DNA of 18,974 nucleotides from a virus. Taxonomy: Duplodnaviria; Heunggongvirae; Uroviricota; Caudoviricetes. Within the stretch, counting starts at the first letter, position 1; the number at the start of each line of letters is the position of its first letter. Location: IMG/VR virus record IMGVR_UViG_3300036876_000145, positions 83,489 to 102,462 of that record, one strand, 5' to 3'. The notes under the pieces were generated by a model. It was not told the DNA's origin and did not search any database. It was given only the letters and a program-made list of their open reading frames with translations. A program made the translations under genes and the position numbers. This document shows, one piece after another, positions 3,184 through 18,974 of the stretch.

Positions 3184-3834
3184 ATGATGAAATACACAGT
3201 CTACAAAACTGTGAATCTGGTCAACGGCAAGTTCTACATCGGTGTCCACAAGACGGACAATCCGAATGATGACTACCTTGGTTCTGGGAAGTTCATCAAA
3301 CGAGCCGTTGCGAAGTACGGAGAGCAGAATTTTCGCAAGGAAATTTTGGCTGTCTTTGAAATCCAGAGAGAAGCTTTCGATCTCGAAAAGAAACTCGTGG
3401 TTGAAGCGAAAGTTGATCCACTGTGTTACAACCTGAAAGCTGGCGGTGAAGGTGGGTTTGACTGGATCAATCGTAAGGGATTGAATAACTCGAACGAGAA
3501 CGGCGTGAAAGGAAATCGGGTTACAATTGGAAAAATAAAAACTGACCCAAAGGTAAAGAAGCGATTTACTGACAGGATCAATCGAGTTAGACAGTATCGT
3601 ACTCAAGACTACAAAGCTCGAATTCCTTCGATGTTACAAAAGTGGACAGGACAGCATCATACCGCCGAGACAAAGGCTAGACTTAGCGAAACGCATAAAG
3701 GTAAGAGCAACGGACGCTTTGGAAAACAGTGGATGTATCATCTCGAATCGCAGAGATCAAAGCCTGTCTCACCGGACGAGATCAATAGCCACATTGAACA
3801 AGGTTGGTTGATTGGTCGCCGGATGAAATTTTAG
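3184..3834 (+). CDS. GIY-YIG homing endonuclease (Seg/I-TevI-like) with a C-terminal NUMOD3-like repeat
   Basis: The N-terminus YTVYKTVNLVNGKFYIGV carries the GIY..YIG motif with downstream R and E residues. The C-terminal TGQHHTAETKARLSETHKGKSNGRFGKQW resembles NUMOD3 DNA-binding repeats. The gene sits inside the tRNA array. Confidence 0.85.
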   Translation: MMKYTVYKTVNLVNGKFYIGVHKTDNPNDDYLGSGKFIKRAVAKYGEQNFRKEILAVFEIQREAFDLEKKLVVEAKVDPLCYNLKAGGEGGFDWINRKGLNNSNENGVKGNRVTIGKIKTDPKVKKRFTDRINRVRQYRTQDYKARIPSMLQKWTGQHHTAETKARLSETHKGKSNGRFGKQWMYHLESQRSKPVSPDEINSHIEQGWLIGRRMKF

Positions 3835-4530: not shown

Positions 4531-4542
4531 TTTTGAACTATG

Positions 4543-4568
4543 AGCGACCTATATTAGAGAGGTCGCTC
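4543..4568 (+). promoter_or_regulatory. 8-bp inverted repeat (GAGCGACC ... GGTCGCTC) placing the HNH SD/start at the loop/3'-arm junction
   Basis: The loop is TATATTAGAG. The SD GAGAGG (4557-4562) straddles the loop and 3' arm. The GTG at 4569 immediately follows the stem. Confidence 0.45.
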
Positions 4569-5006
4569 GTGACAAGTCAAAAAGAAGTTCAAAGACAATT
4601 AGGAATGAGTCGAGGAACCGCCAACTACAGATTGGCGCGTCTTTTACTCTTCAAATACATGCAGCAAGCTGGGGCGGACAACTGTTTTCGCTGCGGTCTA
4701 AAGCTTGAAACGGTTGAAGATTTTAGTATTGAGCATAAAAAACCGTGGTTGTACGCATCCCCAGATTTATATTGGGATTTGGAAAATATTGCTTTTTCGC
4801 ATCGCGCATGTAATTCGGGCGCAGCTAGACAGATCAATAAGACCAAAATGAGTCTTAGATCAGTAGGACCGGAAGGAACAAGTTGGTGTACGGAACATAA
4901 ACAGTTTCTTTCAGTCGATGAATTTCAAAAAAATTCCGCTATTTGGAACGGCTTACAAAGGCAATGCAAAGAATGCCGACAAAAGCGAAATAAAAAGCGG
5001 GCTTAG
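4569..5006 (+). CDS. HNH homing endonuclease (HNH_3-like)
   Basis: CFRCG...EHKKPW...HRACN is an HNH motif. The preferred start is GTG 4569, which has GAGAGG 6 nt upstream; the track's longest ORF starts at TTG 4533. The last 10 nt overlap the 5' end of tRNA-Gly. Confidence 0.8.
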   Translation: MTSQKEVQRQLGMSRGTANYRLARLLLFKYMQQAGADNCFRCGLKLETVEDFSIEHKKPWLYASPDLYWDLENIAFSHRACNSGAARQINKTKMSLRSVGPEGTSWCTEHKQFLSVDEFQKNSAIWNGLQRQCKECRQKRNKKRA

Positions 5007-5084: not shown

Positions 5085-5160
5085 GGCGCACTCTGCTAAC
5101 GGCTAGGCAACCACGTTCTCAGCGTGTGAAATGTGGGTTCAAATCCCGCGTGCGCTACCA
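5085..5160 (+). tRNA. tRNA-Glu(CUC)
   Basis: Acceptor is GGCGCAC/GTGCGCT with A73 and encoded CCA. D-stem is TGCT/GGCA. Anticodon stem is CCACG/CGTGT (4 bp) with loop TTCTCAG. T-arm is GTGGG-TTCAAAT-CCCGC. Confidence 0.6.
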
Positions 5161-5167
5161 GATTTTG

Positions 5168-5224
5168 GCTGACCATGTTCGGCAAGGTCAGCGGTTGGGG
5201 GACATGGCTCAGTACAACCGCTGA
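5168..5224 (+). other. pair of mutually exclusive hairpins (GCTGACC/GGTCAGC 7 bp; TCAGCGGTTG/CAACCGCTGA 10 bp) in a tRNA spacer
   Basis: The 3' arm of hairpin 1 (5186-5192) overlaps the 5' arm of hairpin 2 (5189-5198). The segment is not tRNA-like. Confidence 0.4.
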
Positions 5225-5231
5225 TAACCGT

Positions 5232-5307
5232 GGGGCTATGGCGCAGTTGGGAGCGCGTAATCATGGCATGATTAAGGCCGTCGGTTCGAACCCGACTAGC
5301 TCCACCA
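5232..5307 (+). tRNA. tRNA-Ala(GGC)
   Basis: Acceptor GGGGCTA/TAGCTCC has G3:U70, with A73 and encoded CCA. D-stem is GCGC/GCGC. Anticodon stem is TAATC/GATTA with loop ATGGCAT. T-arm is GTCGG-TTCGAAC-CCGAC. Confidence 0.75.
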
Positions 5308-5313
5308 GATTTT

Positions 5314-5388
5314 GCGGAAGTAGTTCAGCGGTAGAATATTTCCTTGCCAAGGAAGGGGTCGCGGGTTCAAATCCCGCCTTCCGCTCCA
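5314..5388 (+). tRNA. tRNA-Gly(GCC)
   Basis: Acceptor is GCGGAAG/CTTCCGC with U73 and encoded CCA. Anticodon stem is TTTCC/GGAAG with loop TTGCCAA. T-arm is GCGGG-TTCAAAT-CCCGC. Confidence 0.8.
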
Positions 5389-5399
5389 AGTTTAGAAGT

Positions 5400-5461
5400 T
5401 CATGGATGCCTAGATGTCGGTGGCTAACCGAAAGGTCGCGGGTTCAATGTCCGTTCCATGT
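5400..5461 (+). pseudogene. 62-nt tRNA-like element lacking a D-arm (pseudo-tRNA or armless tRNA)
   Basis: There is a 6-bp acceptor-like closing stem (CATGGA/TCCATG), an anticodon-like hairpin GTCGG-TGGCTAA-CCGAA, and a T-arm-like GCGGG-TTCAATG-TCCGT. Only 9 nt lie between the acceptor and the anticodon stem. There is no spacer before the next tRNA. Confidence 0.35.
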
Positions 5462-5537
5462 GGGGCTATAGCGCAGTTGGGAGCGCGTCTCGTTCGCAAC
5501 GAGAAGGTCGTGAGTTCGAATCTCACTAGCTCCACCA
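5462..5537 (+). tRNA. tRNA-Ala(CGC)
   Basis: Acceptor GGGGCTA/TAGCTCC has G3:U70, with A73 and encoded CCA. Anticodon stem is TCTCG/CGAGA with loop TTCGCAA. T-arm is GTGAG-TTCGAAT-CTCAC. Confidence 0.75.
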
Positions 5538-6372: not shown

Positions 6373-6448
6373 GGGGGTATAGCTCAGCTGGGAGAGCGCA
6401 TCGTTTGCAACGATGAGGTCGTCGGTTCGATCCCGTCTACCTCCACCA
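6373..6448 (+). tRNA. tRNA-Ala(UGC), bacterial-type (5' end GGGGGTATAGCTCAGCTGGGAGAGCGC)
   Basis: Acceptor GGGGGTA/TACCTCC has G3:U70, with A73 and encoded CCA. Anticodon stem is CATCG/CGATG with loop TTTGCAA. The T-loop is TTCGATC. Confidence 0.8.
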
Positions 6449-6463
6449 AAATTTAGGGGATGT

Positions 6464-6823
6464 ATGTTAAAGGAATTAAACGACTACAACTGGGCTGAAG
6501 TATTTGGTGAGGGAAGCGGTGGAAACTGCTTTTCGATCAAGCCAAATCGTGCCCCACAAGATACGGAGACATCCATTGGTACGTTTTCCCGCGAGGATGT
6601 AAAAAAACTCTATGGGCAATCTGACGGTGAAAATGATGAACAAAGTTGGGTATGTTGGGGTAAACTAAAAGACGGTCGCTGGTTTGTTGCTCGTGGCGAC
6701 TGCGATTACACCGGCTGGGATTGCAGTGCATCTAATAGCGGAGATGTTGCATCGTCTAAAAAAGATATTATCCGTTTTGGGCTTGATGCTAACGAGCGAT
6801 CACGTTTTAATTTGACGATTTAA
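6464..6823 (+). CDS. hypothetical protein (119 aa, Trp/Cys/Gly-rich)
   Basis: Internal ATG at 6464 of track ORF 6413-6823 has AGGGGA upstream; the part of the track ORF upstream of 6464 overlaps tRNA-Ala. No recognisable motifs. Confidence 0.55.
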   Translation: MLKELNDYNWAEVFGEGSGGNCFSIKPNRAPQDTETSIGTFSREDVKKLYGQSDGENDEQSWVCWGKLKDGRWFVARGDCDYTGWDCSASNSGDVASSKKDIIRFGLDANERSRFNLTI

Positions 6824-6845
6824 AATTTTGATTACGGCTCACAGC

Positions 6846-7019
6846 CTATCTTCCTCGTAATCTCTGCCGTAATTTAGTCATAGGGTTATGCGCCACTTTA
6901 GCTGCCCTCTTAACCACGGGGCAATCACTCATTTTTTTAGCACAACGTGGTAAATCTCCTCGCTGCCCCCACACCTTACCTGGTTGACCGCATCCGTATT
7001 GACAGTAAACTTCATCCAT
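6846..7019 (-). CDS. possible 57-aa Cys4 zinc-ribbon protein (MDEVYCQYGCGQPGKVWGQRGDLPRCAKKMSDCPVV...)
   Basis: Found by manual reverse-strand translation; it is under 60 aa and so not in the track. It carries four Cys residues. There is no SD, and its start overlaps the + strand promoter prediction. Confidence 0.25.
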   Translation of the reverse strand: MDEVYCQYGCGQPGKVWGQRGDLPRCAKKMSDCPVVKRAAKVAHNPMTKLRQRLRGR

Positions 7020-7027
7020 ATTAAATA
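6999..7027 (+). promoter_or_regulatory. sigma70-like promoter: TTGACA (6999-7004), 17-nt spacer, TAAATA (7022-7027)
   Basis: Consensus -35, 17-bp spacer and an A/T-rich -10, about 45 nt upstream of the phosphoesterase ATG. Confidence 0.45.
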
Positions 7028-7032
7028 CATGC

Positions 7033-7066
7033 GGTATTATAGATAATGGGGTATTATAGATAATGG
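7033..7066 (+). repeat. tandem direct repeat, 2 x 17 bp GGTATTATAGATAATGG, plus a partial third copy (GGTACTTAT), in the leader of the phosphoesterase gene
   Basis: Read directly from the sequence. Each unit carries TATTAT and TAGATAAT, which are -10-like elements. Confidence 0.6.
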
Positions 7067-7073
7067 GGTACTT

Positions 7074-7766
7074 ATGCCAAAAATAGTTTTTATTTCAGAT
7101 ACTCATGGGTTACACGGTCAGATGCAGGTGCCCGAAGGAGATATTTTAGTTCATGCTGGAGATATGACTAATGTAGGGCGTATAAATGAAGTTGCTGCCT
7201 TGGGCGTATGGCTCCGTGAAATGGAAAAACGTTTTAAATTTATCGTGATCGTCGCGGGTAATCACGATTGGCTTTTTCAGAAAAATAGAGCCTTGGCTGA
7301 AAGCCTGATAAATCAAGGTACAATGGGAGAAGCTACGGGTAAAATCATCTATTTACAAGATAGTGGAGTTACAATTGATGGCTTAAAAATACATGGAAGT
7401 CCTCAAACTCCTTGGTTTTTTGATTGGGCCTTTAATGTACGCCGAGGAGAACTTAAGCCCTATTGGGATAAGATCCCTGAAGGTCTGGACATATTAATTA
7501 CTCACGGTCCTCCCAGTGGTATACTGGATCAAGCAGACCCTCATTTAGGCAGTGAACATGTAGGCTGTGAAGAACTTATGGAAGCGGTGGAGCGCACCAA
7601 ACCAAAAATCCATGTATTCGGACATATACATGGCGGGTATGGTAAAATGGAACATGTGAATACCACATTTATCAATGCTTCAATTTGCGATGAACGGTAC
7701 AAACCGATTAACGCCCCTTGGGTTATTGATATGGAGCCCCGTGATACACATGGCGAAGAAAAATAA
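7074..7766 (+). CDS. calcineurin-like metallophosphoesterase (binuclear metal phosphatase/phosphodiesterase)
   Basis: The MPP signature motifs are present: FISDTHG, HAGDMTN, VAGNHD, ITHGPP and GHIHGGYG. Confidence 0.85.
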   Translation: MPKIVFISDTHGLHGQMQVPEGDILVHAGDMTNVGRINEVAALGVWLREMEKRFKFIVIVAGNHDWLFQKNRALAESLINQGTMGEATGKIIYLQDSGVTIDGLKIHGSPQTPWFFDWAFNVRRGELKPYWDKIPEGLDILITHGPPSGILDQADPHLGSEHVGCEELMEAVERTKPKIHVFGHIHGGYGKMEHVNTTFINASICDERYKPINAPWVIDMEPRDTHGEEK

Positions 7767-7938
7767 GCTACCTTCGGCGGCTTTATTGTTAAAAACTTTG
7801 GCTGGTGTAATGGCTATGGGATTACCTTACAAAAAAGGAATCTGTATATCTTGTGGGGTAACAGAAAGTAAAAAACATCACACTGACTGCTACTATCTAG
7901 ACGCTTTGAATTTGATAGTGAAATATTATAAGCCATGA
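7750..7938 (+). CDS. hypothetical small protein (63 aa, Cys/His-rich C-terminus), start overlapping the phosphoesterase stop
   Basis: ATG at 7750 lies within the phosphoesterase 3' end, suggesting translational coupling. It is the internal start of track ORF 7675-7938, whose upstream part overlaps the phosphoesterase CDS and is rejected. Confidence 0.4.
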   Translation: MAKKNKLPSAALLLKTLAGVMAMGLPYKKGICISCGVTESKKHHTDCYYLDALNLIVKYYKP

Positions 7939-7956
7939 ACGGTAGTTGAGGAGCGC

Positions 7957-7978
7957 AATCCCAGACTTTTAGTCTGGG
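7957..7978 (+). repeat. hairpin repeat copy 1: AATCCCAGACT-ttt-AGTCTGGG (8-bp perfect stem)
   Basis: A near-identical copy lies at 8180-8201. No T-tract follows. Confidence 0.6.
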
Positions 7979-8014
7979 CTAGCGAATGCCTTTGACTTTA
8001 GAAAGGAGGACACA

Positions 8015-8170
8015 ATGATTCAGTATCAACTCAAGTTGAGAATGTGCAAGTCGCAAGAACAACAATGCGAACAGTTTCTTTATCACCTGTCCTCTGTTTG
8101 GAACTGGGCGGTGAGGAAGATAGAACTCAGCGCGGCAGGATGTGCCGTCGAGGGTTACGCTTATGTGTAG
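8015..8170 (+). pseudogene. TnpB (IS200/IS605 OrfB)-like N-terminal fragment, 51 codons, with a strong SD
   Basis: MIQYQLKLRMCKSQEQQCEQFLYHLSSVWNWAV fits my recollection of the TnpB N-terminal pattern (Y.YKL.P...Q...L......R.VWNWAL). The consensus is recalled from memory, not taken from an alignment. AAAGGAGG lies 5 nt upstream of the ATG. The ORF stops after 51 codons, between the two identical hairpins. Confidence 0.4.
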
Positions 8171-8438
8171 CCGTTCAGGAATCCCAGACTTCAAGTCTGG
8201 GAGCATCAATAACGACCCTAAACTCGTAGCACTGGCTATACTTGTTCGAAAATACGGCACCAAAATATCTGGGGGTGCATACGAAATTTTCATTACCAGT
8301 GAAGATTTTGCAGATTTTTCTTCATTCGGTGAATTGGTTGAGACGAAGGATGAAGAACGCAAAAGACTCAGTTTGCGTTATTATCCTAATCCTACAATTG
8401 AAGGTGAAGGTGGACTTATTGAATCGACCGGGGGTTAA
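8142..8438 (+). CDS. hypothetical protein (track ORF, 98 aa); the start is doubtful
   Basis: The only ATG lies inside the TnpB-like fragment. The acidic C-terminal half has a plausible codon structure. Confidence 0.2.
   Translation: MPSRVTLMCSRSGIPDFKSGSINNDPKLVALAILVRKYGTKISGGAYEIFITSEDFADFSSFGELVETKDEERKRLSLRYYPNPTIEGEGGLIESTGG
8180..8201 (+). repeat. hairpin repeat copy 2: AATCCCAGACT-tca-AGTCTGGG
   Basis: Direct repeat of the 7957-7978 hairpin. Together they bracket the TnpB-like fragment, in an arrangement like the left and right end hairpins of an IS200/IS605 element. Confidence 0.6.
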
Positions 8439-8453
8439 ACATTCAGGTGAAAA

Positions 8454-9023
8454 ATGATTGATCCGTATGATTTGACTAAGCCTTGGGATCAACGCCGTCT
8501 TCAGGAATGGTTCTTATTCGGGATTTGTGTAGCTGGGAAGGGTGCAGGTCAAACCGCTAGGAAAATTGAAGCTTTACTGGACGACATGCGAATTAAGACT
8601 CGTACTGAATTATTCCCCCCATTCGTTCTTGTGAGTCGATCTATTAAAAGCGGAAAACTGGGATACTTTCTACGTAAGCACAAATTAGGTCAATACAAAC
8701 GAATCAATAAAGCGATGCGCGGCATGATCAAAATTGATCCCCAGACTGTTACATTGGAAGAACTTGAGCAGATCCCTGGATTAGGACCGAAGACAGCGCG
8801 TATGCTGTTACTATATACTCGTCCCGACCAGGAAATGATTCCATTGGATACTCATATCTTGCGCTGGCTTCGAAATAATGGGTATAACGCCCCTAAAACT
8901 ACTCCACCAGCGGGAAAGAAATATAGAGAATTGGAGTTGGCTTTTATCGCTGAAGGCAAAAAACGCGGATTATCCCCAAAAGATTGGGATACATTAGTTT
9001 GGCAGCAAGGCGCTAGTAAGTAA
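8454..9023 (+). CDS. HhH-GPD superfamily DNA glycosylase (Ogg2/AGOG-like 8-oxoguanine glycosylase fold)
   Basis: A helix-hairpin-helix motif (LEELEQIPGLGPKTARMLLLY) is followed by the catalytic Asp context PLDTHILRWL. A protein of about 190 aa is typical of small Ogg-type enzymes. Confidence 0.7.
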   Translation: MIDPYDLTKPWDQRRLQEWFLFGICVAGKGAGQTARKIEALLDDMRIKTRTELFPPFVLVSRSIKSGKLGYFLRKHKLGQYKRINKAMRGMIKIDPQTVTLEELEQIPGLGPKTARMLLLYTRPDQEMIPLDTHILRWLRNNGYNAPKTTPPAGKKYRELELAFIAEGKKRGLSPKDWDTLVWQQGASK

Positions 9024-9078
9024 TAGAATCAACAACTTCAGACTTTTTAACTTTAGGTTTCTTGAGTAGGAGAAACCT

Positions 9079-9762
9079 ATGTTCAATTACATCCCTACTT
9101 CCAGGTTAGCTGCCTCATCCGTTTCTCCCCTAAAAACAGCCCCCCGATTTAGAAGTGACCTATTACTCCCAAAAAATAAAAATTGGGCTCAAAGTGTAAA
9201 TTATCTTCGTGATTTTTATACAGATATTCAATTACTCTGGGGTGTTCATGAATCTGAGTCCAACGATCCTTACGACCCAGAGAAAGATAGACAAATTTTT
9301 AAAAAACTAGAGCCTATGCTCCACGAATTGATTCTTGGGATGGATGGAGTATCCAAAGAGCGTACTCAGCGTATGGATATTGCTAAGGCTATTCAAACGG
9401 CTATTTACGATTTCGAAACAGCAACTACTTATGCTCAAACTACAGATTATGCGATGGCGTTAGTATATTTTAATTATGCTTTGGATAGAATTCATTACCA
9501 ACTTGACAGTTTGACAATTGAAGCAAATAAAGAAAACAGTAGTAGGAAGTTGGGTTACGGGTATGACACATCAGGAAATATTGGGGAACAAGGTGGAACT
9601 AGCGGAAACGATAGACATCAATGGGATACCGGGAATTCACCAAAACTCGATAGAACCCCAATGAATCCAGCTAATATGGGAGATTTTGAAGCAGAAAATG
9701 ACTACCCTGAACTTGCAAAATTTAAACATAAAAGAGTATTTTGGCCGCCGCGTACACGATAA
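9079..9762 (+). CDS. hypothetical protein (227 aa)
   Basis: ATG has a TAGGAGAAACC SD. There are no recognisable motifs. It lies immediately upstream of the fibre gene block, so it could be a chaperone or assembly protein. Confidence 0.65.
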   Translation: MFNYIPTSRLAASSVSPLKTAPRFRSDLLLPKNKNWAQSVNYLRDFYTDIQLLWGVHESESNDPYDPEKDRQIFKKLEPMLHELILGMDGVSKERTQRMDIAKAIQTAIYDFETATTYAQTTDYAMALVYFNYALDRIHYQLDSLTIEANKENSSRKLGYGYDTSGNIGEQGGTSGNDRHQWDTGNSPKLDRTPMNPANMGDFEAENDYPELAKFKHKRVFWPPRTR

Positions 9763-9770
9763 GGATAAAT

Positions 9771-12347
9771 ATGTCATCGCCAACTAAAGTAGTTATATTC
9801 AATCCCACATCCACTCTTTTTGATATTGTAAATGGAGTTGATGGCGTTATTGTTCCTTCCAGTGGCGCTGCTTCGGCTGGTATTCCTGTAGTACTGAATC
9901 CTAATGGTGTTATTGATCCTAGTCTTACAAGCAGTGGTGTATCCGCATTGGTTAACTCATTTACTGGATTATCTAGTGGTAATTTGGTGACTTTGTACAT
10001 AAGTGGTGGTGTGTTAGTTATGCAGCCATCTACTGCATCTCCCACTGGACACGGAGTAAATGCTCCTGAACCTCCCAACGGCTGGTATTCTCCCGCGTTA
10101 GGGTTTGTTGATGCCTCTTACAATTATGGGGTAACCGGCACTGTATATTTTTCAGGTAGTTTTAAGTACACAGACACAATCGGGGAGTTTACGGCTAATA
10201 GTGTAGGCGATGTTGTATGGCTAGCGGATTCCGGAGACGGCTTGCACAGCCCAGGCGCTATCACACTCACAACCCCAGCAAGTCAATCATCACCACCATA
10301 CTCACCTTTAAGACAGTCTGTGGGACTGGTCACTAACTATGTGGGTGGAGTAGTAACCGTAAGTTTTAACCCATCGTTTCCAAATTCTGGCATAGGAACT
10401 GTTACAAGTGTAGGTTTAGCTGTACCTTCATGGCTGACTATAAGCAGTGCTAGTAATCCAATTATTTATAATGGCACTTTTACCATCGCTTCGGCACTTG
10501 GATTAGCAGCGAATCAAGTACTCGCAACACCTATCTCTGGCACTGGCATTTTGAGTCCTAGATTATTGGTAGCTAAAGATATTCCAGGTGTTTCAGGAGT
10601 AACTGTAAGCAGCACACCTCCAACTACAAATCAAATTCTCGTAGCTACCAGTGGAACTACCGCTACATGGCAAACTTTTTCAACAGGCTCGGGCACTGTA
10701 AACTCTGGAACTGGGGGACAACTTGCTTTTTATTCCGCTACTGGAACTACAGTATCAGGTAACGCCAATGTTACAGCATCTGTTGGTACTCTTACTTTGG
10801 GGGTGCCCGGATCGGTTGTAGGGTCGATAATATTAGGTCAGTCAAATGCTTTCACAACCATTATAACCGGTGCGGCAACATCTAATTGGACTATGACCTT
10901 GCCTCCGACGGCCGGAACATCAGGGCAACAATTACAAACTAATGGATCGGGTGTAACCACTTGGGTGACACCATCTACCACACAAAACGCACAAACTGGA
11001 ACTTCGTATTTATTCGCAAATTCCGATAACGGCAAATATATATCTTTTAAAAATACATCCGCTGTAACCGTTACTATCCCACAAGCCGGAGCGTCAAGTC
11101 AATTTTTAAGTGGGTGGTATTGCTTCATGCAAAATTTAGGTATAGGACAAGTAACAGTTGTTCCAACTATATCTACTATCAATACTTTTCCCAATATAAT
11201 TTTAGGTACATTCCAATCAGCTATGATTGTATCTGACGGAACCAATTATGAATGTACATTTACGAAAATAGTAAGTACAGATTATTATAATTCTATTAGT
11301 GCGTACCTGCAAAATGATGCCTCTGTTACTGAAGCTCAAAACCAAATCGTAATGCAGGATTTTTCAGTCGGGGGAAACAACCTAAAACGAAAAGGTTTGA
11401 ATATATTTTTAGAAACGAATGCTCAAATGGCAGCAACAAATTATGATGGGTTGCAGGTTAATGTGGGGGCTACGATTGCTTCCAATACTTCCGCATCCGC
11501 GGGACCTGTGGAAGCTGCTGAATTTTCAATATTTGCCTCTGGTTCTGCTGTTACATTACCCCAAATTAATGGTGTAAAAATTCGCACTAATGTACAAGCA
11601 AGTACGGCAGTCCAGAATGTAGTAGGGCTGAATTTTTACTTACCTGAAGTGTTTGGAACAGTAACAAATTATATCGGAATCTATATGGATTCCCCAACTG
11701 GCGGTGGGGTTATAGGCACATCTATAGGCGTAACAGCAGGATTAACACTTAATAATTTAAGTGCAGTTACAAATGAAATTGGATTGATTGCTTATGGAGC
11801 ATCGACCCCATCCACTTATGGGTACGGGATTTTGTCCACCGGTAAAACAGCCGGTATAGTTGCGAATGATCAAACAGTGGTGGGAAGTTTTATCGGACAC
11901 GGCGGAACATTTTCTTCTTACCCTATTGTTTTGCATGATGGTTGGTATGGAGGTACGGGAAGTCCTGAGGGGTCTCTTACCGCAGCTGTGGGATCAATGT
12001 TCTCTCGACAGGATAGCACCATTGGAGATTCTTTTTATGTAAAAACTTCAGGATCAGGAAATACTGGTTGGTCTCCAAGTTCAACTGTGGGACCCATTAA
12101 AACTGTGCTATCGACTTATTCTGTCACGAATTCTGATTCTACCATTAACTGTACAGGAACTTTTACAGTTACTTTACCTATTACAGGTATCGCGGTAGGA
12201 AAGAAATTTCGTGTTAAAAATATAGGGGTAGGTACAATCACAATTTCTTCAACTGCTAACATAGATTTTACAACATCTATATCTTTAACTATACAAGGTC
12301 AGGGTATAGAAGTGCAATGGGATGGCACACAGTATTGGTTGTACTAA
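9771..12347 (+). CDS. tail fibre protein 1 (Gly/Ser/Thr/Ala/Val-rich, about 858 aa)
   Basis: The track ORF is 9741-12347 (TTG start). The preferred ATG is about 30 nt downstream, with an AGGA RBS 5 nt upstream. The composition is the low-complexity beta-rich type seen in phage fibres. It shares the module TVTSVGLAVPSWL...NQVLATP.SG.L.PR.LVA.DIP with the next gene. Confidence 0.8.
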   Translation: MSSPTKVVIFNPTSTLFDIVNGVDGVIVPSSGAASAGIPVVLNPNGVIDPSLTSSGVSALVNSFTGLSSGNLVTLYISGGVLVMQPSTASPTGHGVNAPEPPNGWYSPALGFVDASYNYGVTGTVYFSGSFKYTDTIGEFTANSVGDVVWLADSGDGLHSPGAITLTTPASQSSPPYSPLRQSVGLVTNYVGGVVTVSFNPSFPNSGIGTVTSVGLAVPSWLTISSASNPIIYNGTFTIASALGLAANQVLATPISGTGILSPRLLVAKDIPGVSGVTVSSTPPTTNQILVATSGTTATWQTFSTGSGTVNSGTGGQLAFYSATGTTVSGNANVTASVGTLTLGVPGSVVGSIILGQSNAFTTIITGAATSNWTMTLPPTAGTSGQQLQTNGSGVTTWVTPSTTQNAQTGTSYLFANSDNGKYISFKNTSAVTVTIPQAGASSQFLSGWYCFMQNLGIGQVTVVPTISTINTFPNIILGTFQSAMIVSDGTNYECTFTKIVSTDYYNSISAYLQNDASVTEAQNQIVMQDFSVGGNNLKRKGLNIFLETNAQMAATNYDGLQVNVGATIASNTSASAGPVEAAEFSIFASGSAVTLPQINGVKIRTNVQASTAVQNVVGLNFYLPEVFGTVTNYIGIYMDSPTGGGVIGTSIGVTAGLTLNNLSAVTNEIGLIAYGASTPSTYGYGILSTGKTAGIVANDQTVVGSFIGHGGTFSSYPIVLHDGWYGGTGSPEGSLTAAVGSMFSRQDSTIGDSFYVKTSGSGNTGWSPSSTVGPIKTVLSTYSVTNSDSTINCTGTFTVTLPITGIAVGKKFRVKNIGVGTITISSTANIDFTTSISLTIQGQGIEVQWDGTQYWLY

Positions 12348-12356
12348 GGAAAATAA

Positions 12357-15300
12357 ATGTCTTTTAATTATCCACAAGCTCAAAACGCATTATCACTACA
12401 AGGAAATACTGTAGCTTCTACCACCCCAACTGCGGGGCAAGTACTGGTTTGGAATGGAAGCCAGTGGCAACCCGGAGCAGGAGCATCGGGGGCTAATTAT
12501 AATGTTGTTTATTCCAGTGATTACAACTGGAGTTTGAATTATCAAGCAGGGTGGGGGGCTCTTACGGCTGGTGTGCCAGCTACTTTAACTTTAGCAACCT
12601 GCCCTGTAGGAGTTGACACAAGCGCATCTACTATTTTAGGTGGCCCACAAGGGGCCTATTCGATTTATATCTCCGGATCAGACGGAATAGCGGAGGTTGT
12701 TAAAATTACAGGAGGTACTTGTACTCCTGGTATGACAAATGGGACAATACAATTTATTCCAGCTAATAATCATACTGTATCTGGCGGTAGTCCTCCAACT
12801 GGTTATACTTTAAGTTCAGCAACCGCTGGAATCCAAGAAGCAATCAATACAGCTTGCGGTACAAGTCAAACTTACTACGATAACTCTAACTGTAAAGTGG
12901 TTATTCCTCCATCAGGGGAATTGAGTGGAATGAATGGATACAATATTTATGACACAATCTACTTCCATTCAAATCAAAGTATCCTCAGTGGGTATGGAGC
13001 AACATTAAATCATTATGGAAGAGGCCCATGCCTACAGTTAGGAAATCTACTCAGTTCGAACGATTATGTGAGCAATAGAATAGAAGGTATGATGTTTCGG
13101 GCTCCTGTTTACCAGACAGCAACTGGAACTCTTAACACAAATGGCACAGCTGTGGTAACAGCTGCCGGAATCAGTAAATTCGGCACAAACTGGGCGTCTG
13201 GGTCTAACATATTAATTAATGGAACTGCCTACACGATCGCATTTGTCAACAGCAACACTCAAATAACATTGACAACCACAATTTTAACAGCATCAGGTTT
13301 ATCTTATGCTTATCAAGCGTACTCTGGGTCTTTAATTACAAGCACTCAAAGAACGAACGGGGTTACTACAATTACCACCAGCGAACCCCACGGGTTTGTA
13401 ACTGGGGATCGCGTAACTCAAATGCTGACCGATAATTCAGCTTTTTGGGGGGATGTTCCTTACATAACAGTTACTAGTCCAACTACCTATACATATGGAC
13501 GCTGGCTAAATGGGAATTCCGCAAGTAATATTACTGCAACTTCTATCACATCGAATGTCCTTACGATAATGGCGAATAATAGCTTTACTGTAGGGGAAAA
13601 TGTTCTTTTAGCGGGGACATCTGAAAGTTATCTTAACAATAAAGTAGTGACAGTCGCAAGTTTATTGGGGGCTAGCGGTTCTCCCCCAACATATACAGGA
13701 TTTACAGCGAACTTCACCGCAACTAACTATTCTAACCCATCAGAGCCGTCTACCGCTGAAGCTTACCCACCAGTAGGTAATATCGCTCTTCAAACCACAC
13801 CGGGGGTGGTTGCTCTTACTTATGTAGCGATATTAGATAACGCTGGAGGCAGTCAATTAGTGGATATTAGTTCTGCAAATGCTTATCAAGAATATTATTT
13901 CAATCATTTTTTTGACCTTTGGGATGACGAGTGCTGTACAATAAAGTCTTTCAATAATAACGCTGGATCCTTACAAAATAATGTAAACTGGACAGGATCT
14001 TTTATATGGTCTGGGGGAGCCTCCGGTTTACCTTTAGCTGCCAATCAACTAGCCCCTGTCATTACCCTTAAAGATTCTAATATTACGGCCAATTGCTCGA
14101 ATGGTGTTACAGTCTATAACTCCAACGGAGTTTATATTCATGATACAGTTCTGCAAGCAACCGGACCTTGGCAGGTGTATACGTCTAATGCCACAGGTAA
14201 CTATCAAGGGGCCCACTTGGAAAATTTGTATTCTGAATCTTCCGCTAGCTCCAATCCAGCCTCCCCTGTTCGTAGCCCCTATGCAGGCTGTGGTATTGCA
14301 GGAGCAATTTTTGGGCCAAGCACGGGAGCGGCTTCTTTTAGAATTAAAGGAACGGGGGTTGAAGGGCAACTTCCAACTGTAGGTGCAGGTGCAACATCCT
14401 ATCTCTATTATGTAGTAATTAATGATACAACAACGGGCACATCATCTGCCCCTCTGCCTGTAATGATTGCGAATTCCAACGGAGGGGCAGTTACAGTTTC
14501 TTGGCCACGAGTATCAAATGGAACAGATTCTATTACATATGATGTATTGCGTGTTTCTCCGAATACATTAGGAAGTATATCAAATATCGGTCCTTACACT
14601 GGAGGTTGTCCTGGTGGGGTTACACAATCACCCCCTAGTGTTAGCACAATGGGAAGTGTAGTGACTGGGCAAGCTCAACAATCTGGCTTTATTCAGACTT
14701 TTGTGGATAATACTACAGTTCCCACATCAAATTATCCTACAGTGCCGATCGGGAGTTATCAAGGTAATATTTTGTTCTGGCCTGGACAAGCGATTACTGT
14801 AGGAATAACCCCTATTATCAGCGACAATATTGTTAATGTTTATAGTACAGGGGCGTGTGGAAGTCCGACAAATATTTGTTTATATCCAGGACACGGAAGT
14901 GGTGCGGCACCAGCTATATCGGCATCTACCGCTACTAGTTTCGCTTTAAACGATTTATATGAACAACAAGCTCTTATTTTAAATGATGGCTGGTATCAAG
15001 GACCACAAACAGCAAATCTTAAAGGACGTTTGCAATTTGCCTCATCTGGGTTAGCTTTCCCGGGAGAGGTTAATAACGGACATATTATTACTTTAGTGGA
15101 TTCTGATCCTCAATTGACCAGGGCTTACGCATTAAATCGTCCACCCAATTCATCTTCTGATTGTTTCATTGGAATTGACGGTATTGGTCCATATTACGCT
15201 AATGTAGCTCCAATTGCTATAGGCTCTCCAGTTTCTATTAGTCATTATATAGCAAACATTGGTGACGGTACGAATTGGAAAGAACGATTAACATCATCAG

Positions 15301-16226
15301 TTAAACAGTTCAAAGTTCCTGTACAACTAGAGTCAGTAACATTTGCTACTTTACCATCATCCCCAGCGAATGGCATGGAAGTATATTGTTCTGATTGTAC
15401 TTTTGGATCAAACCCCTGTACAGGTAGTGGCACAGGATCTTTTGCATATCGAGTTAATGGCGCGTGGGTTTGTAGCGATTCGAGTGGGTCCGGTGGAGTA
15501 AACGCCACTAATTCACCATCACAATATGCTGTAACTACTTGGGTAAACAGCACTACTATTGAAGGCATTGCGCCATCTTCTACAAGTGGGTATCCTTTAT
15601 TATCTAATGGTTCATCTGCGTATGCTTCTTTTGGGCAACTCTCAGTCGGAGCAATTAGTGCCACGGGCACACCGTCTTCCACCACTTATTTGAGGGGAGA
15701 TGGTAGCTGGGCTACTGTATCTGGTAGTGGGACAGTTACTTCTGTAGCGATGACCGTACCAGCCTGGTTATCCGTGAGCGGGTCTCCTATAACCGGCACT
15801 GGTACGCTTGCCATCACTTCAGCGGGGAGTTTGACCCAAAACTGGGTCTTAGCTACTCCTAATGGCAGCAGCGGTGTATTAGCTCCTCGTGCCTTGGTAG
15901 CGGCGGACATTCCAACTTTAGGAGTAAGTACCGTTAGTTTTTCAGCAACGCCAATTTTCAACGCTACTGGTTATAGCGGATTCAAAATAACTCTGACCGG
16001 TAATGTTACCAGCTCCACATTCACAAATGGGACGGCAGGAAGTCTTTACACTTTTGAGATCACGCAGGACGGAACAGGTGGTCGGACATTTGTCTGGCCC
16101 GCTAATTTTAAAGGCGGCGCAAGTGTGACAGATCAGGCCGCAGGATCCAACGAGACAATAGCACAGTTATTTTATTTTGACGGCAGCAATGCACTTGCTG
16201 TTGGTCCAGGAATGGTGACCCCATAA
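12357..16226 (+). CDS. tail fibre protein 2 (1289 aa)
   Basis: ATG has an AAGGAAA RBS, 9 nt after the previous stop. The composition is highly G/S/T/N/A-rich. Its C-terminal region repeats the module found in fibre 1 ([13 protein letters not shown]...[25 protein letters not shown]). Confidence 0.85.
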
Positions 16227-18974
16227 TGTCAATTCGCATTTACTTTCTCGCTTTAATTATTGCACTAACATCTTTGGCTGGTGCGCAAAATATTACCGGT
16301 AACAGTTTGACACTCTCGCCTACTTTGACCGTAGGTACACTTCCATCAGCAGCAACCAATAAGGGGCGCACGTTTTCTATCAGTGACGGATTAAATTCTA
16401 CCGACTGTACTGTTGGCGGAGGAACTAACCATGTATGGTGCTGGTCAAATGGAACTATCTACGCAGTGCCGTTTGGGTCGGCAGCAGGGGGCGTCACTTC
16501 CATTAATACCGTAGCCGGGGCGTTTACATTCAGCGGACCTGGGGTAACTTGTACAAGCACGGCTTGCACATTTTCCGGTACAGGAGTATCTTCTGTTTCG
16601 AACAGCGATGGAACTCTGACGATATCTCCCAACACAGGAGCAGTCGCAGTTTCGCTTGCTTTAAGTCATGCTAACACATGGACAAATCAGACGATTGACG
16701 GGGTGACCCCAACCACTTTTGGCTTCGTCGATCCCACGTCTAGTATTCAGACGCAGTTGAATGCCAAGGCTAACTCCAGCGTGACTACTCTTTCTTCGTT
16801 GATTGCGGCTGCTGGGGGTACGTTTGGGACGTGTGCGTTTGTGAATACTTGTGGTTCGGGAGGAACGTATAGCGCGGTTACTTCTCCGATTACGGCATCT
16901 AGCAGCACGCTCCAGTTTTCCGCGTCTCTGCTGAACTACGGTGGCAACGGAAATGGGACTTCAGACAACTCCACGGCCATGACTTCAGCGTGCGCCGCGA
17001 ACTCAGAAGTCTGGTTGCCTGCTGGGGCGTATGCGTTCACATCGAACTATGCCGTGTCGTGCGGGCTTCACTTCGGCGCTGGGGCAACGCTTGTAGCCCC
17101 GACTGGAGTAACGGTTACAGTCAATGGCAAGATCGACGCTCCCACTGTGCCAATATTTACTGTAGCTGGAACCGGGAAGTTTCTTATCGGTCCAGGAACT
17201 CCTGTCGATTACGCGGAGTGGTTTGGAGCGAAGGGCGATAACTCAACCGACGATACAATTCCTATCACATCCTGCGCCAACAATTTTACCAAATCAGGGT
17301 TGTGCCAGCTTCTTGGGAAGTCCTATAAAACAACAAACGTCATCATTCTTAGCACCAGCTATACAGGGCTGATAGGAGTAGATTCGGGGCAGACACAAGG
17401 GCCACAGCCCACTGGTTCGGGATACTCCCAGATCAATAACAATAGCGCTACATCGGACATCATCGACATAAGCGGGAGTGGGATTTTGCCTTACGGTGTA
17501 ACGGTGAAAAACCTTACCTTGGCCAAATCCGTTGCAGCCACAAACGCAGGTGCGAATGGGCTATATCTGGGAACTGGGTTCTGGCATTTTGTTGATAACA
17601 TCAATATTTGGGACGCGCCCAATGGAGTGACTGTCGGTGCCTCTGCTACCGTGATAGTGACGAACGTCAACGTCAACTGGTCCTCTCTCTGTTGCTCAGT
17701 GCCCGTCGTAGGGTTCAACTTGAACGGACCTTCGAATGTCTTCTCTAATATCTTCGCAGAGAGGGAAGGTTCCAGTGCGAGTGCCACCGGTTTTGCAATG
17801 GCAGCGGGAGGTACCGGACTGAGCGACGTATGGGTGAATAACGCTCAGGCTGATTTCGTCGGGACAGGGTTCTTGATCGACGTAACTGCGTGTGTGGCCG
17901 CTGATCCTAGCAACGAATGTGCAACGGACATTCACATTACCAATCCTATTATCAATGTGAGCAATACAGGGTTTAGTTTTGTGAACTTGAACTCGGCCAC
18001 TGGTCCCCAAGGGCCGTCAGTCGATATCGTCGGGGGTTCGTTCCTGGAAAGCTCCGGTAACGCGTTTACCTTCACTAACTCCACCACAGGGTACAACATC
18101 GAGCACTTTAACAGTCAGGCAGGTGGTGTTAACACTTTCATCAATCGGACCATGCCGTCTGCGTTCTTCTCCATACCAGTATGTAGCGCGAGCTATGAAG
18201 GGTCGTATGAATCGTTTAATGATTCCGCGACGAATACACAAGGAGCAACGATCACGGGCAGCGGAACGAATCATGTGCTCGGGTACTGCAACGGAACGAA
18301 CTGGGTAGTAGCCTCGGGGAGCGGCAGTGGGAGCAGCGGACTATCTGGCATGACAGCTACACAGATCCCGATTGCTGCCTCATCCTCGACCGTAACTAGT
18401 TCCGTACCAGCACCCACAGGCACAATTGTAGGGACAACCGATACCCAAACTCTCACGAATAAGACATTGGACGGTGTATCCCCAACAACATTTGGATATG
18501 TTGACCCTACTTCCAGTATCCAGACGCAGTTGAACGCCAAGCAAGGGACGCTCACAGGCACCGGGTTGGCTCGCAACACCGGAGCATCCTCGGAACTGAG
18601 CGGCGACTGCGCCACCAGCGGATCAAACGCTATCGTCTGTACGAAGACGAACGGGACGGCTTTCGGCACTGGAGCTACGGCTACCATCGCCAACTACGCC
18701 CTGCTGACCGGAGCGACCTTCAGTGGTGCGATCTCCGCCGCCGGGATCACGAACTCATCCGTATCCAGCGCCGGTTGTGCGACGTTCAGTTCTGGTGGAG
18801 TTCTGACCAGCACAGGAACGGCTTGCGGTAGCGGATCTGGTGGCGATACGATCACATCACCCAACAGCACGCTTTCCGTGGGTGGAACTTCTGCGGCAAC
18901 AACGCTCGATCTCAACCTTGGCCACGCGAACACCTGGACGGCGACTCAGACTTTTCCGAATGGGTCGATCACGT
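16226..18974 (+). CDS. tailspike or depolymerase-like protein, 3' partial; it has a pectate-lyase-type beta-helix motif and an N-terminal hydrophobic segment
   Basis: The ATG overlaps the previous stop (ATAATG). The ORF is open to the window end. [17 protein letters not shown] matches the pectate_lyase_3/tailspike N-cap motif. The N-terminus [21 protein letters not shown] is signal-peptide-like. The module HANTWT..QT...[18 protein letters not shown] is repeated internally. GC content is higher than in fibres 1 and 2. Confidence 0.8.

Follow-up and report, generated by a model that had tools for sequence, protein, structure and literature searches.

The window examined here is a stretch of 18,974 nucleotides (nt) from a tailed phage, IMG/VR record IMGVR_UViG_3300036876_000145 (positions 83,489 to 102,462 of that record), and the subject of this analysis is its third large fibre gene, here called fibre 3, which runs from 16226 to the window end on the + strand. 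Fibre 3 probably encodes a modular fibre or tailspike of a jumbo phage that carries a swapped beta-helix cassette and a Sec-type N-terminus, and we hold the part of this reading that concerns a mosaic tailspike and recombination with still greater confidence. Comparison with related contigs shows that the beta-helix cassette was recently exchanged between compositionally different phages at conserved junctions. From its N-terminus onward the protein would consist of a signal peptide, an N-domain, a junction module, the beta-helix, an SGSGSGS linker, a second junction module and a distal fibre. The features referred to below are as follows, with GC for guanine plus cytosine content, GC3 for its value at third codon positions and aa for amino acids.

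12357..16226, + strand: fibre 2, the upstream gene, 1289 aa, no signal peptide
16224..16228, + strand: stop/start overlap TAATG (ATAATG), in which the TAA of fibre 2 and the ATG of fibre 3 share one base
16226..16285, + strand: Sec-type signal-peptide-like N-terminus, aa 1-20, called from sequence
16286..16573, + strand: N-terminal domain, aa 21-116, GC3 about 0.40, resident-like composition
16574..16795, + strand: junction module 1, aa 117-190, holding breakpoints 16607 and 16794 and change point 16690
16931..18100, + strand: predicted right-handed parallel beta-helix domain, aa 236-625
16931-17032 and 17219-17257, + strand: cap-like motif 1 (aa 236-269) and cap motif 2 (aa 332-344)
18101..18310, + strand: small post-helix region, aa 626-695, with a second copy of the N-domain motif (z = 6.1)
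18314..18334, + strand: SGSGSGS flexible linker
18335..18973, + strand: distal fibre part, aa 704-916 and beyond, GC3 0.59
18371-18553, + strand: junction module 2, inside the distal fibre part
18848-18940, + strand: third HANTWT module, inside the distal fibre part

The evidence for an exchange comes from contigs that match one part of fibre 3 and not the rest. L005 (ENA) has 99.3% DNA identity to window positions 15575-16794 and then diverges, the match spanning the end of fibre 2 (100% protein identity) together with the signal peptide, N-domain and junction module 1 of fibre 3; its product P0001 has 95.6% amino-acid identity over aa 1-205 and a different distal part. Two other contigs match window 16607-18337 only, L006 at 96.2% DNA identity (the contig ends at 18334) and L009 (IMGVR_UViG_3300036717_000014) at 98.1%. 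In front of the L009 beta-helix stand a signal peptide (MRTIRSLALLLILAPIMAWG followed by Q) and an N-part of 385 aa that both differ from those of fibre 3, and the C-part beyond GSGSGSG is different too, homology to the window stopping at 18337. L009 carries head-morphogenesis and homing-endonuclease genes, has a GC of 56.7% vs 46.2% for the window, and has nothing in common with the rest of the window except a weak match (25% identity) between GIY-YIG homing endonucleases, so that the same cassette is found in otherwise unrelated phages. Homology ends at conserved motifs that flank the variable cassettes: the left breakpoints at 16607 and 16794 fall within junction module 1, and the right breakpoint, 18337, falls where the SGSGSGS linker ends, shortly ahead of junction module 2. 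Between the window and L009 the cassette differs at 21 synonymous and 7 nonsynonymous codons, suggesting purifying selection in both phages.

A preliminary description of this DNA had proposed a recently acquired receptor-binding or depolymerase module, possibly captured from a secreted bacterial enzyme. Horizontal exchange of the beta-helix part is borne out by the L009 match, but the cassette seems to have come from another phage and not from a bacterial gene. Nor does joint acquisition of the signal peptide and the enzyme hold, as L005 keeps the signal peptide and N-domain with another distal part, whereas L006 and L009 keep the helix with another signal peptide and N-part; the signal peptide and the enzyme domain thus have separate histories.

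Base composition changes within the same interval. Fibre 1 and fibre 2 have GC contents of 0.419 and 0.436 and GC3 values of 0.283 and 0.303, against 0.527 and 0.543 for fibre 3 (chi-square p = 2e-38 for GC3), and the GC rise described earlier is therefore real and a uniform profile is excluded. GC at first and second codon positions (GC1 and GC2) is nearly equal across fibres 1-3 and every four-fold codon family is shifted to G/C-ending codons, which places the shift at synonymous sites and not in protein composition. The maximum-likelihood GC3 change point lies at nt 16690, about 465 nt into fibre 3 and between the two left breakpoints, where GC3 goes from 0.301 to 0.575; the observed likelihood ratio was reached by 0 of 200 permutations. 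Calling the gene compositionally distinct is consequently right from nt 16690 on and wrong for the whole gene, as the first ~465 nt are resident-like. In L009 the neighbouring genes have GC3 values of 0.60-0.73 and the common cassette 0.57, and origin of the cassette in a compositionally different phage accounts for the jump at nt 16690. A lesser GC3 step is found at 15662, within fibre 2, the last ~570 nt of which already show an elevated GC3 (0.40-0.42), with 99% identity to L005. We considered it hardly credible that amino-acid composition or expression level, and not a foreign origin, lies behind the higher GC of fibre 3. The residues G, A, S, T and N do make up a very large share of the protein (58.5%), but the near-constant GC1 and GC2 and the change in every four-fold family do not fit this explanation, the switch falls inside the gene at a homology breakpoint, and the cassette is 98% identical to that of a phage of different GC, so amino-acid composition as the cause is effectively refuted.

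The window as a whole is a patchwork in composition, with a GC3 of 0.61 in its methyltransferase gene. GC3-rich islands other than fibre 3 lie at 898-2124, 2636-2989 and 5133-5471 (0.56-0.61 vs 0.29-0.39 in the genes at 6413-9762); they include the gene for an N6/N4 DNA methyltransferase, and homing endonuclease genes of the GIY-YIG (3184-3834) and HNH (4533-5006) types are among them.

The fibre 3 frame is open from 16181 and its first start codon is the ATG at 16226. Further in-frame starts are TTG codons at 16274, 16307 and 16325, inside or after the hydrophobic segment; this survey of the frame rules out a wrong start codon, and ATG 16226 is the sole plausible start. Overlap of this ATG with the fibre 2 stop codon suggests translational coupling of the two genes. 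The open reading frame (ORF) runs for 916 codons to the window end, and five minus-strand ORFs of 79-140 aa lie within 17491-18933. An exact-match search with the window end found two short, noisy, frameshifted metagenome contigs, which match the last 235 nt, and no match among viral contigs. These two contigs carry fibre 3 on for at least 230 residues past the window, with typical fibre motifs (..ANYLALAGGTMTGAITFAGG..NQNTTGTAANLSGTPALP..). Among the Ga0182031 contigs, L134, which extends the fibre 3 C-terminus, also holds ..SIAFPQTVSGTTVANGIPYLSSTTNLVGGSAAFT.., part of the different C-terminus of L009, and in L135 this segment is present only as a frameshifted trace; its occurrence in both L134 and the L009 C-part indicates that the distal modules are shuffled further.

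The junction modules are related to one another as internal repeats. HANTWT occurs at aa 148 (nt 16667) and aa 900 (nt 18923), and a 13-residue motif of the junction modules at aa 169 and aa 760. At the DNA level 16682-16768 and 18455-18541 are 77% identical, and at the protein level aa 111-190 match aa 701-790 (z = 16.5 over shuffles) and aa 111-165 match the HANTWT module at aa 861-916 (z = 8.3). The motifs and repeats first described are therefore in place, with the difference that copy 2 of the junction module has 10 other residues where copy 1 has HANTWTNQT. A weak repeat that the description did not include joins the N-domain (aa 26-100) to aa 641-700 (z = 6.1).

The centre of fibre 3 is supported as a pectin-lyase-fold beta-helix by structure prediction. 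An exhaustive profile-free search gave 1,711 relatives at E <= 0.001, and the model was built on an alignment of aa 185-700 from fibre 3 and 28 relatives (29 sequences). AlphaFold returned a right-handed parallel beta-helix for aa 234-624, with a predicted template modelling score of 0.80 and 259 residues at a predicted local distance difference test (pLDDT) of at least 90. When compared with viral models using Foldseek, the best match had E = 7e-13 and the next, with E = 5e-12, bears the name "Pectate lyase superfamily protein", in agreement with the fold first proposed. For aa 1-235 the model had a pLDDT of 47 and was not usable, and confidence in the post-helix region (aa 626-695) was low. 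The pectate-lyase-type cap motif that prompted the early proposal is present at aa 332-344 (nt 17219-17257); its form EWFGAxGD, with E, W and G, is near-invariant in the 29 sequences, and the upstream cap-like motif (aa 236-269) is also conserved in this alignment. These two cap-like motifs, about 90 residues apart (16931-17032 and 17210-17257), are both kept in homologues, which suggests that the start of the helix is duplicated or in two parts. We predict that the beta-helix is a glycan-binding domain and probably a depolymerase.

The N-terminus of fibre 3 looks like a genuine signal peptide. It reads MSIR (n-region), a 13-residue h-region and AGA (c-region) with a predicted cut before Q21, confirming the signal-peptide-like start noted previously, and it has the positively charged n-region, uncharged hydrophobic h-region and small residues at -3 and -1 expected of a Sec signal peptidase I substrate. 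At 13-16 residues the hydrophobic run has a length typical of signal peptides, and no lipobox cysteine is found in the fibre 3 N-terminus. Relatives including P0001, P0003, P0004, P0005, P0007, P0009 and many more begin with canonical signal peptides of unrelated sequence, for example MKKLVLLSLVLIASSCAFA followed by Q, and a crude home-made rule, used here in place of a trained predictor, flags 81 of 152 full-length relatives. Among the 37 IMG/VR loci whose 5′ end could be read, signal peptides are found in the seven closest relatives and in one more, and distant relatives with only the ..IQTQLNAK motif have ordinary fibre N-termini. Fibre 3 also contains 20 cysteines in ten close pairs; C256 and C279 are both present in 9 sequences and singly in 2, a co-conservation that is suggestive for this pair only. 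We place real Sec export of fibre 3 at about even odds. In the literature, of which our coverage was incomplete, we found no phage fibre or tailspike gene reported to have a signal peptide.

The setting of the signal-peptide-bearing relatives is that of phage tail modules. P0004 lies on a 43.6-kb IMG/VR contig, and a related contig that shares an exact 50-nt match has a P22-like layout with portal, scaffold, major head protein, adaptor, head closure and DNA-ejection protein. On the P0004 contig the ejection-protein-like genes are followed by a block in which six of the seven genes, P0004 included, have signal peptides, and then by endolysin, holin-like genes and DnaB; over the ~30 kb of this P22-like type that was read, portal to DnaB, no beta-helix protein other than P0004 was found. 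A Phage-tail_3 gene precedes P0007 and the gene after it, P0009 and its two neighbours share a contig with a portal gene and lie ~7.6 kb upstream of it, and in L005 the gene 3′ of the fibre 3 allele also begins with a signal peptide. Runs of signal-peptide-like genes are seen at the distal end of tail modules in L001 (5770-13326), L003 (10001-15606), L007 (9517-14427) and L005 (2528-3310), and directly before the lysis genes in the P22-like contig. PHROG scans of eight neighbouring signal-peptide-bearing phage genes assigned no function.

Junction modules connect fibre 3 to a wide set of proteins in phages and in bacteria. The first module has 203 copies in 83 of the 168 proteins fetched, with up to 28 in one protein, the copies being 61-88% identical to that of the window in otherwise unrelated proteins, and a second module type is similarly widespread. 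A scan for module 1 across one genome per prokaryotic species confirmed 153 stretches, and 20 of the 21 best matches were in Acidobacteriota. Carriers belong to Acidobacteriaceae, Bryobacteraceae, Terriglobia, Blastocatellia and Solibacteraceae, with a lesser match in the isolate Terriglobus albidus DSM 26559. About 15 of 22 of the chromosomal module proteins in Acidobacteriota have signal peptides when judged by eye. Four host loci (L053, L057, L058 and L075) and a handful of phage contigs were inspected. All four host loci have glycan, housekeeping or insertion-sequence genes as neighbours, including GT1 glycosyltransferase, GDP-mannose dehydratase, GH18, GH28, GH106, Laminin_G_3 and histidine kinase genes and, as mobile genes, an IS110-type transposase and an integrase-core gene; no phage structural genes were seen in them. 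Signal-peptide-bearing module proteins in these loci reach ~2,200 aa. The host proteins look like a secreted fibre-like family in glycan loci; one member tested had no NCBIfam match and another had only a weak, sub-threshold Pfam match to CBM_5_12. Since secreted Acidobacteriota proteins encoded outside phage loci belong to the same wider family, the signal-peptide-bearing fibre genes may have an older origin in bacteria. Fibre 3 itself is not a bacterial chromosomal gene outside a phage, being coupled to fibre 2 in a jumbo-phage-like window and having its close relatives on viral contigs; only the distant Acidobacteriota module carriers have such a chromosomal setting. Fibre 1 aa 216-344 (10386-10772) and fibre 2 aa 1122-1246 (15720-16094) also have a module in common, 45% identical, and this module (..SVGLAVPSWLTISS..ATPISGTGILSPRLLVAKDIP..) is found in the signal-peptide-bearing phage protein P0007 as well, a further sign of a common module pool.

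Gene content indicates that the window belongs to a jumbo-phage lineage. Its non-fibre genes include the methyltransferase, the homing endonucleases and a phosphoesterase, and the order phosphoesterase, HhH protein, orf9079 and fibre 1 (window 7074-12347) is kept in IMG/VR contigs of 332 kb and 170 kb, the products of the first three genes being 41-73% identical and the N-terminal part of fibre 1 31-34%. The matching stretch of the 332-kb contig (L131) is 8495-16884. Among cultured phages the HhH protein is matched best by the 309-kb Tunturiibacter phage Tunturi_5 (44.9%), one of the first isolated acidobacterial viruses (PMC11924767), and taking the distribution of the module together with this one distant cultured relative, the host is most likely a member of the Acidobacteriota. 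Searches of 50,697 deposited phage genomes by tblastn and megablast found no match to fibre 3 or to the whole window. In deposited phage genomes fibre 1 gave only short matches, covering 5-11% of the protein, and a scan of viral contigs with fibre 2 gave none. Close relatives of fibre 3 lie on L009, L010 and L011, which are IMG/VR viral contigs with phage head or replication genes.

The HhH-motif protein (8454-9023) corresponds to phrog_11575, of unknown function, and is kept at 40-45% identity in about 30 Caulobacter phage genomes, those listed being 219-225 kb (CcrBL10, CcrRogue). In Tunturi_5 (L133 13989-18811) its homologue gp212 is followed by gp211, annotated as an RNA polymerase sigma factor, then by three other genes and a helicase, and there are no fibre genes between gp212 and the helicase; the fibre block of the window therefore looks like a variable insertion site. 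The 112-aa ORF at 5133-5471 has three adjacent, overlapping matches in the 332-kb relative (L131 5089-5835), suggesting a small repeated gene or motif.

Several observations weigh against a particle-borne, exported tailspike with an enzymatic helix. Fibre 3 is incomplete, being cut by the window end. In the 332-kb relative this position holds two fibre genes and nothing equivalent to fibre 3, which makes fibre 3 accessory. No sequence match to any part of fibre 3 was found in Pfam, PHROG, NCBIfam or PDB, so the assignment of fold and family rests on the predicted structure; fibres 1 and 2 likewise had no match in these four. Pfam gave no family for aa 196-675 at an E limit of 10, a search limited by HMMER filters that discard most matches above ~0.1, nor for the whole of fibre 3 at 0.1, and fibre 3 did not match PF12708 or PF13229 at the gathering score. 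The sole PF12708 match was a weak one in the distant relative P0032 (22.6 bits, below the cut-off of 27). The alignment holds no conserved acidic pair or catalytic residues, its near-invariant columns being cap and structural residues, and enzymatic activity is therefore unproven. Turning to export, the signal-peptide rule has a background of 7% of ORFs of at least 150 aa in viral loci and made two evident false positives. Fibre 2 is also Cys-rich and yet has no signal peptide, which makes the argument from cysteines and disulfides a weak one. To our knowledge, the tailed phages studied so far build their virions in the cytoplasm from proteins that have no signal peptides, and a functional export signal is hard to reconcile with a virion role.

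In the preferred reading fibre 3 would, by analogy with known tailspikes, assemble as a trimer; its beta-helix would bind, and probably cleave, a polysaccharide on the surface of an acidobacterial host, and its distal fibre would add a second binding function. The junction modules may act as homologous-recombination sites at which receptor-specific cassettes are swapped. Judging from the N-terminus, the signal peptide would send fibre 3 via Sec to the periplasm, where it could form disulfides and act on nascent polysaccharide, and the exported protein could become part of particles only once lysis has brought periplasm and cytoplasm together. Adding tailspikes to P22 heads, or fibres to fibre-less T4 particles, can complete them in vitro, and export followed by incorporation at lysis is possible in principle on this precedent. 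A two-compartment assembly route of this kind has not been described for tailed phages and would provide for disulfides and possibly early trimming of polysaccharide in the periplasm. We regard it as speculative, and on balance unlikely, that there is a sizeable phage group, mainly of Acidobacteriota, in which fibres and tailspikes are Sec substrates that mature in the periplasm, join the particle at lysis and draw on a module pool in common with the host.

The strongest alternative, which we judge less probable than the preferred reading but worth serious attention, is that fibre 3 is a Sec-exported soluble enzyme or adhesin that remodels host exopolysaccharide or capsule and is not a particle component. 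Receptor destruction, a superinfection block and release from biofilm are examples of the roles it could play, and its ultimate source would be the host's own secreted fibre-like proteins. Its signal peptide follows the textbook pattern, the Acidobacteriota module proteins are mostly signal-peptide-bearing and sit in glycan, housekeeping or insertion-sequence loci (4 of 4) free of phage structural genes, and there is a bacterial precedent in the Tat-exported tailspike-like WceF (PMC7949094). These host homologues, and the accessory nature of fibre 3 seen from the 332-kb phage contig, favour export without incorporation. Fibre 3 is nevertheless coupled translationally to fibre 2 through TAATG, is made of modules typical of tail fibres, has homologues directly 3′ of tail genes (P0007 after Phage-tail_3) and appears to have received its cassette from another phage contig. 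A particle role is also favoured because the signal-peptide-bearing P0004 is the sole beta-helix protein found in the ~30 kb read of that P22-like type.

A further explanation, which seems to us unlikely, keeps fibre 3 in the cytoplasm and assembles it onto the particle as usual, the N-terminal helix being a trimerisation or docking element or a leftover that Sec ignores. It would agree with the general knowledge that well-studied tailed-phage fibres all assemble in the cytoplasm, with the tail-module position of the homologues and with the rule-based nature of the signal-peptide calls. It does not explain why the n/h/c pattern with small -3 and -1 residues and a following Q is kept in dozens of relatives of unrelated sequence, a divergence across which a leftover would not persist; the N-terminus moreover resembles those of the host's secreted homologues, and its hydrophobic run has the length of a signal peptide. 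We also examined the idea that the window passes from a phage or prophage into the host chromosome, with fibre 3 as a host gene, which the shift of GC toward host-like values and the signal-peptide-bearing host proteins with the same junction module might seem to favour. The start of fibre 3 overlaps the stop codon of fibre 2, however, L005 has the same fibre 2/fibre 3 junction at 99% identity, the close relatives on L009, L010 and L011 are on viral contigs with phage genes, and the other genes of the window match a 332-kb jumbo-phage contig and not a prophage. We rejected this idea on these grounds and consider it very improbable.

Known beta-helix tailspikes include those of P22, HK620 and Sf6, CBA120 TSP2, phi29 gp12, Geobacillus virus E2 ORF18 and the Acinetobacter and Klebsiella capsule depolymerases. 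Fibre 3 is like these in its GAKGD..TDD-type cap motif, its position in a fibre cluster and its modular build, with the predicted enzyme domain between an N-terminal part and distal domains. It differs in matching no family model by sequence, in having its helix in mid-fibre in a protein of probably more than 1,150 aa, in its second, upstream cap-like motif, and in an N-terminus that is a predicted signal peptide with no recognisable particle-binding domain. Mosaic tail fibres are known to recombine at short motifs, as in the His boxes of T-even gp37/gp38 and in segments of P2, Mu, P1 and lambda. As in these fibres, the fibre 3 cassettes are flanked by conserved motifs at which homology ends and are exchanged by unrelated phages, but the motifs are different ones (HANTWT and a 30-residue module), they occur in genomes that are mostly Acidobacteriota, and the host's secreted proteins use them too.

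Proteins that combine a fibre-like or late-phage character with an export signal have been described elsewhere. WceF of Pantoea stewartii is a tailspike-like trimeric beta-helix with a Tat export signal that acts on the bacterium's own exopolysaccharide (PMC7949094). Like the Acidobacteriota chromosomal relatives of fibre 3 it lies in a glycan biosynthesis cluster, but it is bacterial and uses a Tat and not a Sec-type signal, and we found no sequence similarity between it and fibre 3. The mosaic adhesive trimer (MAT) proteins of Bdellovibrio are phage-fibre-like trimers with a signal peptide, a small conserved N-domain and exchangeable tips (PMC10769870). MAT fibres thus resemble fibre 3 in being mosaic and in having a signal peptide followed by a small N-domain; they are surface proteins of a predatory bacterium and not phage-encoded, whereas genes of the fibre 3 type sit in phage tail modules. 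Among phage proteins, some endolysins are exported by Sec or carry signal-anchor-release (SAR) domains, for example Lys44 of Oenococcus phage fOg44 (PMC6116005). These set a precedent for a tailed-phage late protein with a host-type signal peptide, but they are lysis enzymes and not fibres or tailspikes. SAR domains are weakly hydrophobic and rich in Gly and Ala, unlike the strongly hydrophobic core in fibre 3.

Tailspike beta-helices and cassette exchange at fibre motifs are both known, and the mosaic part of fibre 3 fits these. With exact breakpoints at junction motifs, a GC scar at synonymous sites and 98% identity across phages of different GC, the module swap provides a clean, datable case of soil phages re-tooling host recognition, and it concerns the Acidobacteriota, an abundant phylum with very poorly known viruses. 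The signal peptides weigh more in importance than the module swapping. Export signals are known on bacterial tailspike-like proteins and on some phage endolysins, and fibre 3 would extend them to phage fibre and tailspike genes. That a phage particle protein has no signal peptide is a common assumption, and one study argued for a phage origin on that ground (PMC6199706); if these fibres are truly exported, the rule would fail for a whole phage group. Filters that use signal peptides to tell viral structural, auxiliary metabolic and host genes apart in soil metagenomes would misclassify such genes, and export would raise the question of where and when receptor-binding proteins join the particle.

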